Under the pieces are notes generated by a model. The model made no database searches. It was not told the DNA's origin and saw only the letters and a program-made list of their open reading frames with translations. Below are positions 63,398 to 64,000 of a DNA stretch of 64,000 nucleotides, piece after piece (the first letter of the stretch is position 1; every line of letters starts with the position of its first letter). The DNA is taken from the NCBI RefSeq assembly GCF_001677475.2, contig NZ_CP015229.1; one strand, 5' to 3'. Made by a program: the position numbers and the translations under genes. Source of the DNA: Escherichia coli (GTDB lineage: Bacteria; Pseudomonadota; Gammaproteobacteria; Enterobacterales; Enterobacteriaceae).

Positions 63398-64000
63398 TTA
63401 ATAATACTCTACACATAAGCCAGAAGACTTTCCTGTCCCAAGCTCTGATATACCAGTTTCAGGATTAAATTTCTCGTGTACCCCTAAGAGCTGAGTACTT
63501 GTCCAATAATCCGTACCGCTAAAAGCGTTCCCATAAGTTTTCAAATTACCATATTCGCCCCACAACGTACCTACTTTTCGCGGTACTACCCCACCGCTTG
63601 GCCGCTGCGCTAATTCTAAAGATGACGGCATTTGACCATAGCTACATGAAGTATTTATGATATCCCAGGTATTACTACTGCTAGCACCTAAACTAGTAAA
63701 CCATTTTTTAATCTTGAATTTAAATACAACATCATTCCCTTTACCATTCTTGGGTTTCCCAGTAATAGTAACTTCACTTCTTATCAGCACAGATAATGTT
63801 ACTTCTCCATTACTGTCAACATTAATTCCATAAATCCCAGCCGTCCAATTATAATCCGTATTTTTCATATTATGGGTTAGTAACAGCGTGAATTTTGCAC
63901 CATCAAACCCTGTTTCTGGAAAACCATCTGTCGCCCTGAATTTTACACCATTAACACTCAGCGACTCGACTTCCACAAAAGGAAGGATGGTATAGGATGG
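63398..64000 (-). CDS. eaeX: intimin/invasin-like adhesin, C-terminal part (5' end outside window)
   Basis: Reading frame open to the window edge; C-terminal domain with conserved Cys pair and Ig-like/lectin-like character typical of invasin/intimin C-termini; gene symbol is tentative, from recalled synteny. Confidence 0.55.
   Translation of the reverse strand, partial: PSYTILPFVEVESLSVNGVKFRATDGFPETGFDGAKFTLLLTHNMKNTDYNWTAGIYGINVDSNGEVTLSVLIRSEVTITGKPKNGKGNDVVFKFKIKKWFTSLGASSSNTWDIINTSCSYGQMPSSLELAQRPSGGVVPRKVGTLWGEYGNLKTYGNAFSGTDYWTSTQLLGVHEKFNPETGISELGTGKSSGLCVEYY

Follow-up and report, generated by a model that had tools for sequence, protein, structure and literature searches.

The 64,000-nucleotide stretch of Escherichia coli DNA analysed here (hereinafter the window) ends in a pair of convergent genes: on the plus strand eilA (61649-63346), coding for a 565-aa HilA-family regulator, and on the minus strand the 3′ end of air (also named eaeX or iatC; 63398-64000), which comprises the last 200 codons and the TAA stop codon (63398-63400) of a coding sequence that runs past the window edge. 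The two stop codons lie 51 bp apart, and the gap between them holds a perfect inverted repeat (63356-63385). Upstream of eilA on the same strand is the rest of the selC-B/eip island (56384-61446), which consists of eicA, coding for a chaperone (56384-56881); a 60-aa ORF with no family assignment (56891-57073); eipB, coding for a SipB/YopB-like protein (57129-58910); eipC (58923-60053), whose 376-aa product matched no NCBIfam model and is labeled a 'hypothetical protein' in RefSeq; and eipD, coding for an IpaD/SipD-like tip protein (60097-61446). The gene order, starting from the tRNA-Sec gene selC (51807-51901), is thus selC-setC-yicL-nlpA-yicS-eicA-60-aa ORF-eipB-eipC-eipD-eilA, with air converging on the last of these, and the same order from selC through the eilA-air pair to nepI is seen in the E. 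coli strains 042, C4, O169:H41, and SMS-3-5. The assignment of eilA, which a preliminary description of this DNA had given as a HilA-like regulator facing an adhesin gene, is secured by a score of 951 bits against the NCBIfam model NF009037 (cutoff 589) and agrees with the RefSeq annotation.

Within this shared order the strains show some variation. The product of eipC is of 376 aa in the window, C4, and O169:H41, and of 383 aa (1,152 bp) in 042 and SMS-3-5; the 60-aa ORF between eicA and eipB is intact in the window, C4, O169:H41, and SMS-3-5, and annotated as frameshifted in 042. In the window, selC is not occupied by a large island, with ~640 bp leading to setC (51807-52538), while the same position beside selC carries an annotated rhuM pseudogene remnant in C4 and O169:H41 and a P4-like prophage region, called selC-A in the literature, in 042 and SMS-3-5. 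Elsewhere in the window, a JUMPstart RNA element (Rfam RF01707, 53 bits; 23758-23796, minus strand) lies upstream of a long cluster of minus-strand ORFs, which we take to be the waa LPS-core operon.

Translation of the minus strand from 64000 to 63398 yields 200 sense codons that end in GLCVEYY before the TAA, with no stop in the frame up to base 64000, just as had been described; when the mononucleotides of the fragment were shuffled 20,000 times, an open frame of 200 codons never survived. The program-made ORF list contains, for this fragment, a GTG-started piece of 192 aa alone, because it omits ORFs that run off the window. The encoded sequence and the C-terminus of Air/EaeX from the enteroaggregative strain E. 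coli 042 agree at 198 of 200 residues. A megablast search with 63300-64000 as query (701 bp, spanning the 3′ ends of eilA and air with the gap between them) matched 720 of 5,426 complete E. coli genomes, the top identity being 97.9% in this set, which includes SMS-3-5. At the matching position RefSeq annotates an 'inverse autotransporter adhesin IatC' or 'EaeX/Air' beside a 'HilA family transcriptional regulator EilA', the two adhesin labels being names that RefSeq gives to one orthologue in different genomes; hence, the earlier reading of the frame as an adhesin gene cut by the window edge was right. Searches of the 200-aa fragment against NCBIfam gave no matches because the model for this family, NF040978, spans only the N-terminal 1,065 aa of the protein. 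On all the evidence we are almost certain that 63398-64000 represents the 3′-terminal part of air (= eaeX = iatC), a type Ve adhesin gene of the eip/selC-B island.

Since the window holds 603 bp of a gene of ~8.8 kb, the intactness of that gene was read from a contig that is identical to the window over the 12.35 kb they share. An exact look-up of the EilA protein of the window retrieved draft E. coli assemblies coding for the identical protein. Contig ABBDLF010000011.1 of GCA_019140575.1 (hereinafter L004) is 100% identical to window positions 51649-64000 at all 12,352 shared positions, and a further contig (L005) has one mismatch over 12,352 shared bases. The complete air gene of L004 (contig positions 11750-20551; 8,802 bp) is an uninterrupted ORF of 2,933 aa, of which the window carries the part at 63398-64000, and air lies 202 bp from nepI. 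Precomputed Pfam matches to its product comprise IAT_beta (PF11924), Big_1, Invasin_D3, and Invasin_D4, and it scores 2,969 bits against NF040978 (Ve_IatC_Nterm, 'inverse autotransporter adhesin IatC'; cutoff 2,400), the corresponding score of 042 Air being 3,128 bits. In 042 Air the IAT_beta match (residues 148-423, E 1.9e-108) is followed by Big_1/Invasin_D3 matches up to an Invasin_D4 match near the end. Both proteins accordingly display the arrangement of type Ve systems, namely an inverse-autotransporter barrel preceding a passenger of Big_1/invasin D3 domains, and the score above the family cutoff goes together with the position of an IatC/Air/EaeX orthologue, convergent with eilA, with nepI upstream and the eip island near selC. 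The preliminary description had proposed that the upstream sequence be recovered and searched for LysM, beta-barrel, and bacterial Ig-like domains, and had named an interrupted frame or a lack of barrel or Big domains as grounds for abandoning the adhesin reading. The L004 frame is unbroken, and the barrel and the Big_1 domains are present; LysM, a periplasmic domain of the large members of this family that was reported as predicted in IatC by Goh et al., 2019 (PMC6714894), appears as a weak partial Pfam match in 042 Air (residues 81-98, E 0.049).

The exact 2,933-aa protein is found on 23 contigs labeled as E. coli, and the L004 protein aligns without gaps at 92% identity to the experimentally studied IatC of SMS-3-5. 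SMS-3-5 has an air gene of equal length (8,802 bp), but this identity and the maximum of 97.9% among the complete genomes speak against it as the source of the window. With regard to the lineage itself, the best match to 44000-64000 among the 5,426 complete RefSeq E. coli genomes is 97.6% identical, and for the gmk-rpoZ-spoT-trmH-recG stretch (within window positions 36949-64000) the best value among the complete RefSeq E. coli genomes is 97.9%; exact matches were obtained only in the draft assemblies GCA_019140575.1 and GCA_018682865.1. This suggests that the window derives from a divergent or under-sampled E. coli lineage, in which the eip-eilA-air island is apparently intact. A 70-mer of the window searched for exactly in the GTDB species-representative genomes had no match, so its source is not among them.

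The inverted repeat between eilA and air has arms of 14 nt (TAAATTGCCCTGCA and TGCAGGGCAATTTA) that are 100% complementary and separated by 2 nt. Its predicted folding energy is −24.4 kcal/mol on the plus strand (z −5.2) and −23.7 kcal/mol on the minus strand (z −6.2), with none of 200 shuffles folding as well, so the strong palindromic hairpin noted between the convergent genes is indeed there. A terminator consensus scan called it for air (minus strand), with a stem of 13 bp containing 6 G-C pairs and the T-rich tail TCTTAGTTCT; for eilA (plus strand) the same scan did not call the hairpin, the tail there being GTGATTACTTCGTT, which is not a clean U-tract. C4 and O169:H41 share the core AAATTGCCCTGC...GCAGGGCAATTT unchanged with the window; the 3′ arm of 042 carries a single substitution, T to C at 63383. 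In the uppermost pair of the stem (63369/63372), both bases are changed in 042 relative to the window and can still pair, and in C4 and O169:H41 one base is changed and the pair is lost. The hairpin does not appear to resemble the consensus of REP/BIME elements. It is most likely the intrinsic terminator of air; it may possibly also terminate the eilA transcript and so act bidirectionally, which is uncertain because no clear U-tract follows it on the eilA strand.

The part of air that lies in the window codes for two domains, in keeping with the beta-rich, Ig-like and lectin-like C-terminal region that had been perceived in the translation. The first is an Ig-like domain homologous to domain 4 of invasin (D4; 63755-63958, minus strand; fragment residues 15-82; Pfam Invasin_D4, E 6.7e-12). 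The second is a C-type-lectin-like tip domain homologous to invasin domain 5 (D5; 63401-63703, minus strand; fragment residues ~100-200), identified by alignment to the Yersinia invasin structure 1CWV and by its fold; the last ~115 residues of the fragment matched no Pfam or NCBIfam model. In a sequence search of the PDB, 1CWV was the one entry retrieved (E 5e-20), with fragment residues 5-188 aligned to chain residues 298-479, that is, to D4 and D5 together. When 1.84 billion representative proteins were searched exhaustively, 353 relatives of the tip were recovered, and the module is mostly situated at the extreme C-terminus of these proteins, which differ widely in length. A word-index protein search had given 10 matches, mostly fragmentary, from which a five-sequence alignment was made for a first AlphaFold model; this model was dropped, as D4 was modeled in it and D5 was not (pLDDT <50 for residues 102-200). 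With an alignment of 39 tip sequences, AlphaFold gave a model with a mean pLDDT of 95.2 and values >95 over the D4 stretch. Foldseek comparisons of this model with the PDB placed invasin 1CWV first (TM 0.86, rmsd 2.5 Å, E 4e-16), intimin 1F00 second (TM 0.66), and intimin-190 (1E5U) third (TM 0.53). The fold match agrees with the sequence match and is not independent of it, because the alignment included invasin and 1CWV belongs to the training set of AlphaFold. The resemblance to an invasin- or intimin-like receptor-binding end that was seen in the letters of the sequence is thereby upheld, and by both sequence and predicted fold the tip is nearer to invasin than to intimin.

The conserved cysteines remarked upon earlier are two in number (fragment residues 119 and 196, equivalent to residues 2852 and 2929 of the full-length protein). 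They align with C907 and C982 of invasin, are kept in 38 of 39 aligned family members, and are the only cysteines of the mature protein; the pair fits the conserved disulfide of the lectin-like domain and would be predicted to form it. In invasin, Asp911 is critical for the binding of beta-1 integrins, and Leong and colleagues are said to have established in 1995 that it is essential for this binding. The equivalent position in the tip is Gln in the pairwise alignment or a gap in the multiple alignment, Asp being present there in invasin alone among the 39 members, and Asp811, the synergy residue in D4 of invasin, aligns with fragment Thr24, with Asp25 adjacent. Because Asp911 is replaced and Asp811 aligns with Thr, the tip would appear to have the invasin fold without the invasin receptor signature.

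The region upstream of the tip contains a tandem array of Ig-like repeats, each of 291 bp (97 aa), whose number varies between strains: 11 copies in L004 (2,933 aa), 15 in C4 (3,321 aa), 20 in 042 (3,806 aa), and 24 in O169:H41 (4,194 aa), the protein of SMS-3-5 being as long as that of L004 (2,933 aa). The differences in length between the proteins are explained exactly by repeat copy number, and variation in the number of Ig-like repeats of eaeX has been described (Fox et al., 2020). The base composition of the L004 gene changes along its length: its first ~7.2 kb, coding for the barrel and the repeat stalk, are of 51-63% G+C, with the peak in the repeat array, and its last ~1 kb, coding for the final Ig-like domains and the lectin-like tip, are of 39% G+C, the value for the eicA-eilA island being 37%. 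This step in G+C suggests that the tip may be of recombinant origin. One could go further and regard air as a mosaic, in which the tip came with the type III secretion system (T3SS)-related island, was grafted onto a resident inverse-autotransporter scaffold, and might recognize a receptor of the host or one delivered by ETT2/eip; such a receptor would be distinct from integrins because Asp911 is absent. If this were true, adhesion and translocation would constitute a co-evolved pair analogous to intimin and Tir, but we consider so extended a reading unlikely.

Still less probable, in our estimation, is that Air is a true invasin, whose tip would attach to beta-1 integrins and bring about entry into host cells in the manner of Yersinia. 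Such a role would be in line with D4-D5 of invasin being the closest solved relative by sequence and by fold and with the retention of the disulfide cysteines; against it stand the Gln or gap at Asp911, the Thr at Asp811 (even with an Asp adjacent), and an identity of only ~26-30%. Moreover, IatC bound no extracellular matrix (ECM) proteins when produced in K-12 (PMC6714894), and of the NCBIfam models named for invasins, the two that the full-length protein matched gave scores under their curated cutoffs: YchO/YchP family invasin (272 bits, cutoff 508) and Cronobacter Inv (264 bits, cutoff 710).

The location of air beside translocon and tip genes, under a regulator common to them, brings to mind an intimin-type adhesin that docks onto a Tir-like receptor translocated by eip/ETT2, and 1F00 is indeed the second-best fold match of the tip, while the beta-barrel region matches the intimin model. 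Nevertheless, the protein attains 360 bits against intimin_all, far below its cutoff of 1,400, and its TM-score to intimin is below that to invasin (0.66 vs 0.86). A Tir-like protein was not found in enteroaggregative E. coli 042 (PMC2808357), no tir- or cesT-like gene is annotated in the syntenic regions of 042, C4, and O169:H41, and IatC confers biofilm formation on K-12 without any T3SS (PMC6714894); consequently, we think it extremely unlikely that Air belongs to this type. Hardly any credence, finally, can be given to air being a decayed pseudogene, interrupted upstream of the window edge so that the source strain makes no adhesin: although ETT2-associated loci are prone to mutational attrition (PMC7058095), eipD is frameshifted in O169:H41 as is the small ORF between eicA and eipB in 042, the match extends over <80% of the 701-bp query in ~87 of the 720 genomes, and the upstream 8.2 kb lie beyond the window, this is unlikely because the contig identical to the window has an intact ORF, which is likewise uninterrupted at 2,933 aa in L005, while the exact protein recurs on the 23 contigs and, in the window, eilA and every eip gene are intact.

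The identification of the locus as air, convergent with its regulator in the eip island, connects it to a published body of work. The eip island next to selC was described by Ren et al., 2004, and, according to Sheikh et al., 2006, eaeX and the eip genes are under the control of EilA, and mutants in eilA and in eaeX show less adherence and less biofilm, all as relayed in two later papers (PMC4210603, PMC7058095). The coordinated cassette of adhesin, translocon, and regulator that the preliminary description had surmised matches the model given in those papers and is not new. The locus carries translocon and tip proteins and no secretion apparatus, and any role in 'invasion' would depend on ETT2 elsewhere in the genome. 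For the adhesin itself, Goh et al., 2019 (PMC6714894) showed IatC to be on the surface of recombinant K-12, where it promotes biofilm, and predicted its C-type lectin cap; exposure of the passenger was demonstrated by immunofluorescence for the SMS-3-5 allele, which is 92% identical to the L004 protein, and overexpressed IatC caused neither autoaggregation nor ECM protein binding in K-12. The gene and its regulatory link being already known, the finding made in the window is correct and ordinary, and its significance extends little beyond correct annotation, although it shows that an invasin-type tip and a probable convergent terminator can be recognized in the letters of the sequence alone.

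Combining the domain organization with this literature, we propose the following picture of Air in the strain of the window. An N-terminal signal sequence would be followed by a periplasmic LysM-like segment and a beta-barrel of 12 strands serving as the outer-membrane anchor. By homology, secretion would follow the type Ve pathway, with a long passenger of Big_1/invasin-D3 Ig-like domains exported through the barrel to form a stalk, to which the 97-aa repeats, 11 in this lineage, would contribute. The part encoded in the window would constitute the distal tip, in which the last Ig-like domain, of the invasin-D4 type, is predicted to pack on a disulfide-bearing C-type-lectin-like domain of the invasin-D5 type; this tip may, by analogy with invasin and intimin, be the ligand-binding end. 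Surface display, the promotion of adherence and biofilm formation by Air, and the activation of air transcription by EilA, encoded convergently 51 bp away, are taken from the literature and would apply here. In this model the hairpin between the stop codons would end the air transcript (most likely) and the eilA transcript (probably).

Air can be compared with several known systems. With intimin (Eae of EPEC/EHEC, 1F00) it has in common the secretion type, the beta-barrel family, and the architecture of an Ig-like and lectin-like tip, but it scores well under the intimin cutoff, lacks a Tir partner, and is encoded in the eip/selC-B island and not in the LEE. Like Y. pseudotuberculosis invasin (D4-D5 in 1CWV), Air ends its inverse autotransporter in an Ig-like plus C-type-lectin-like tip; the two differ in that Asp911, which lies in the SDMS loop of invasin, is absent in Air, and in the stalk, which has >20 Ig-like domains in Air and 3 in invasin. 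More distant IatC-like proteins also occur, and at least one belongs to a different Escherichia species: a protein of 1,454 aa (P0014), less than half the length of Air, shows 67% identity in the N-terminal 1,087 aa and 51% in the tip, and a 316-aa protein of E. albertii (P0006) is 49% identical in the tip. IatC of SMS-3-5 (EcSMS35_4024), the allele cloned by Goh et al., 2019 (PMC6714894), corresponds to the L004 protein in locus and length (2,933 aa, with 11 repeats as deduced from that length), and differs from it at 8% of residues, mostly in the repeat array in the alignment viewed to about residue 1,500. Finally, Air/EaeX of 042 (EC042_RS21320, WP_000907437.1) is like that of the window in its locus between eilA and nepI, in the hairpin core, and in domain order; it differs in its length of 3,806 aa and in having 20 copies of the 291-bp repeat, compared with 2,933 aa and 11 copies in the lineage of the window, and the two sequences show 16 nucleotide differences over the 701 bp compared.
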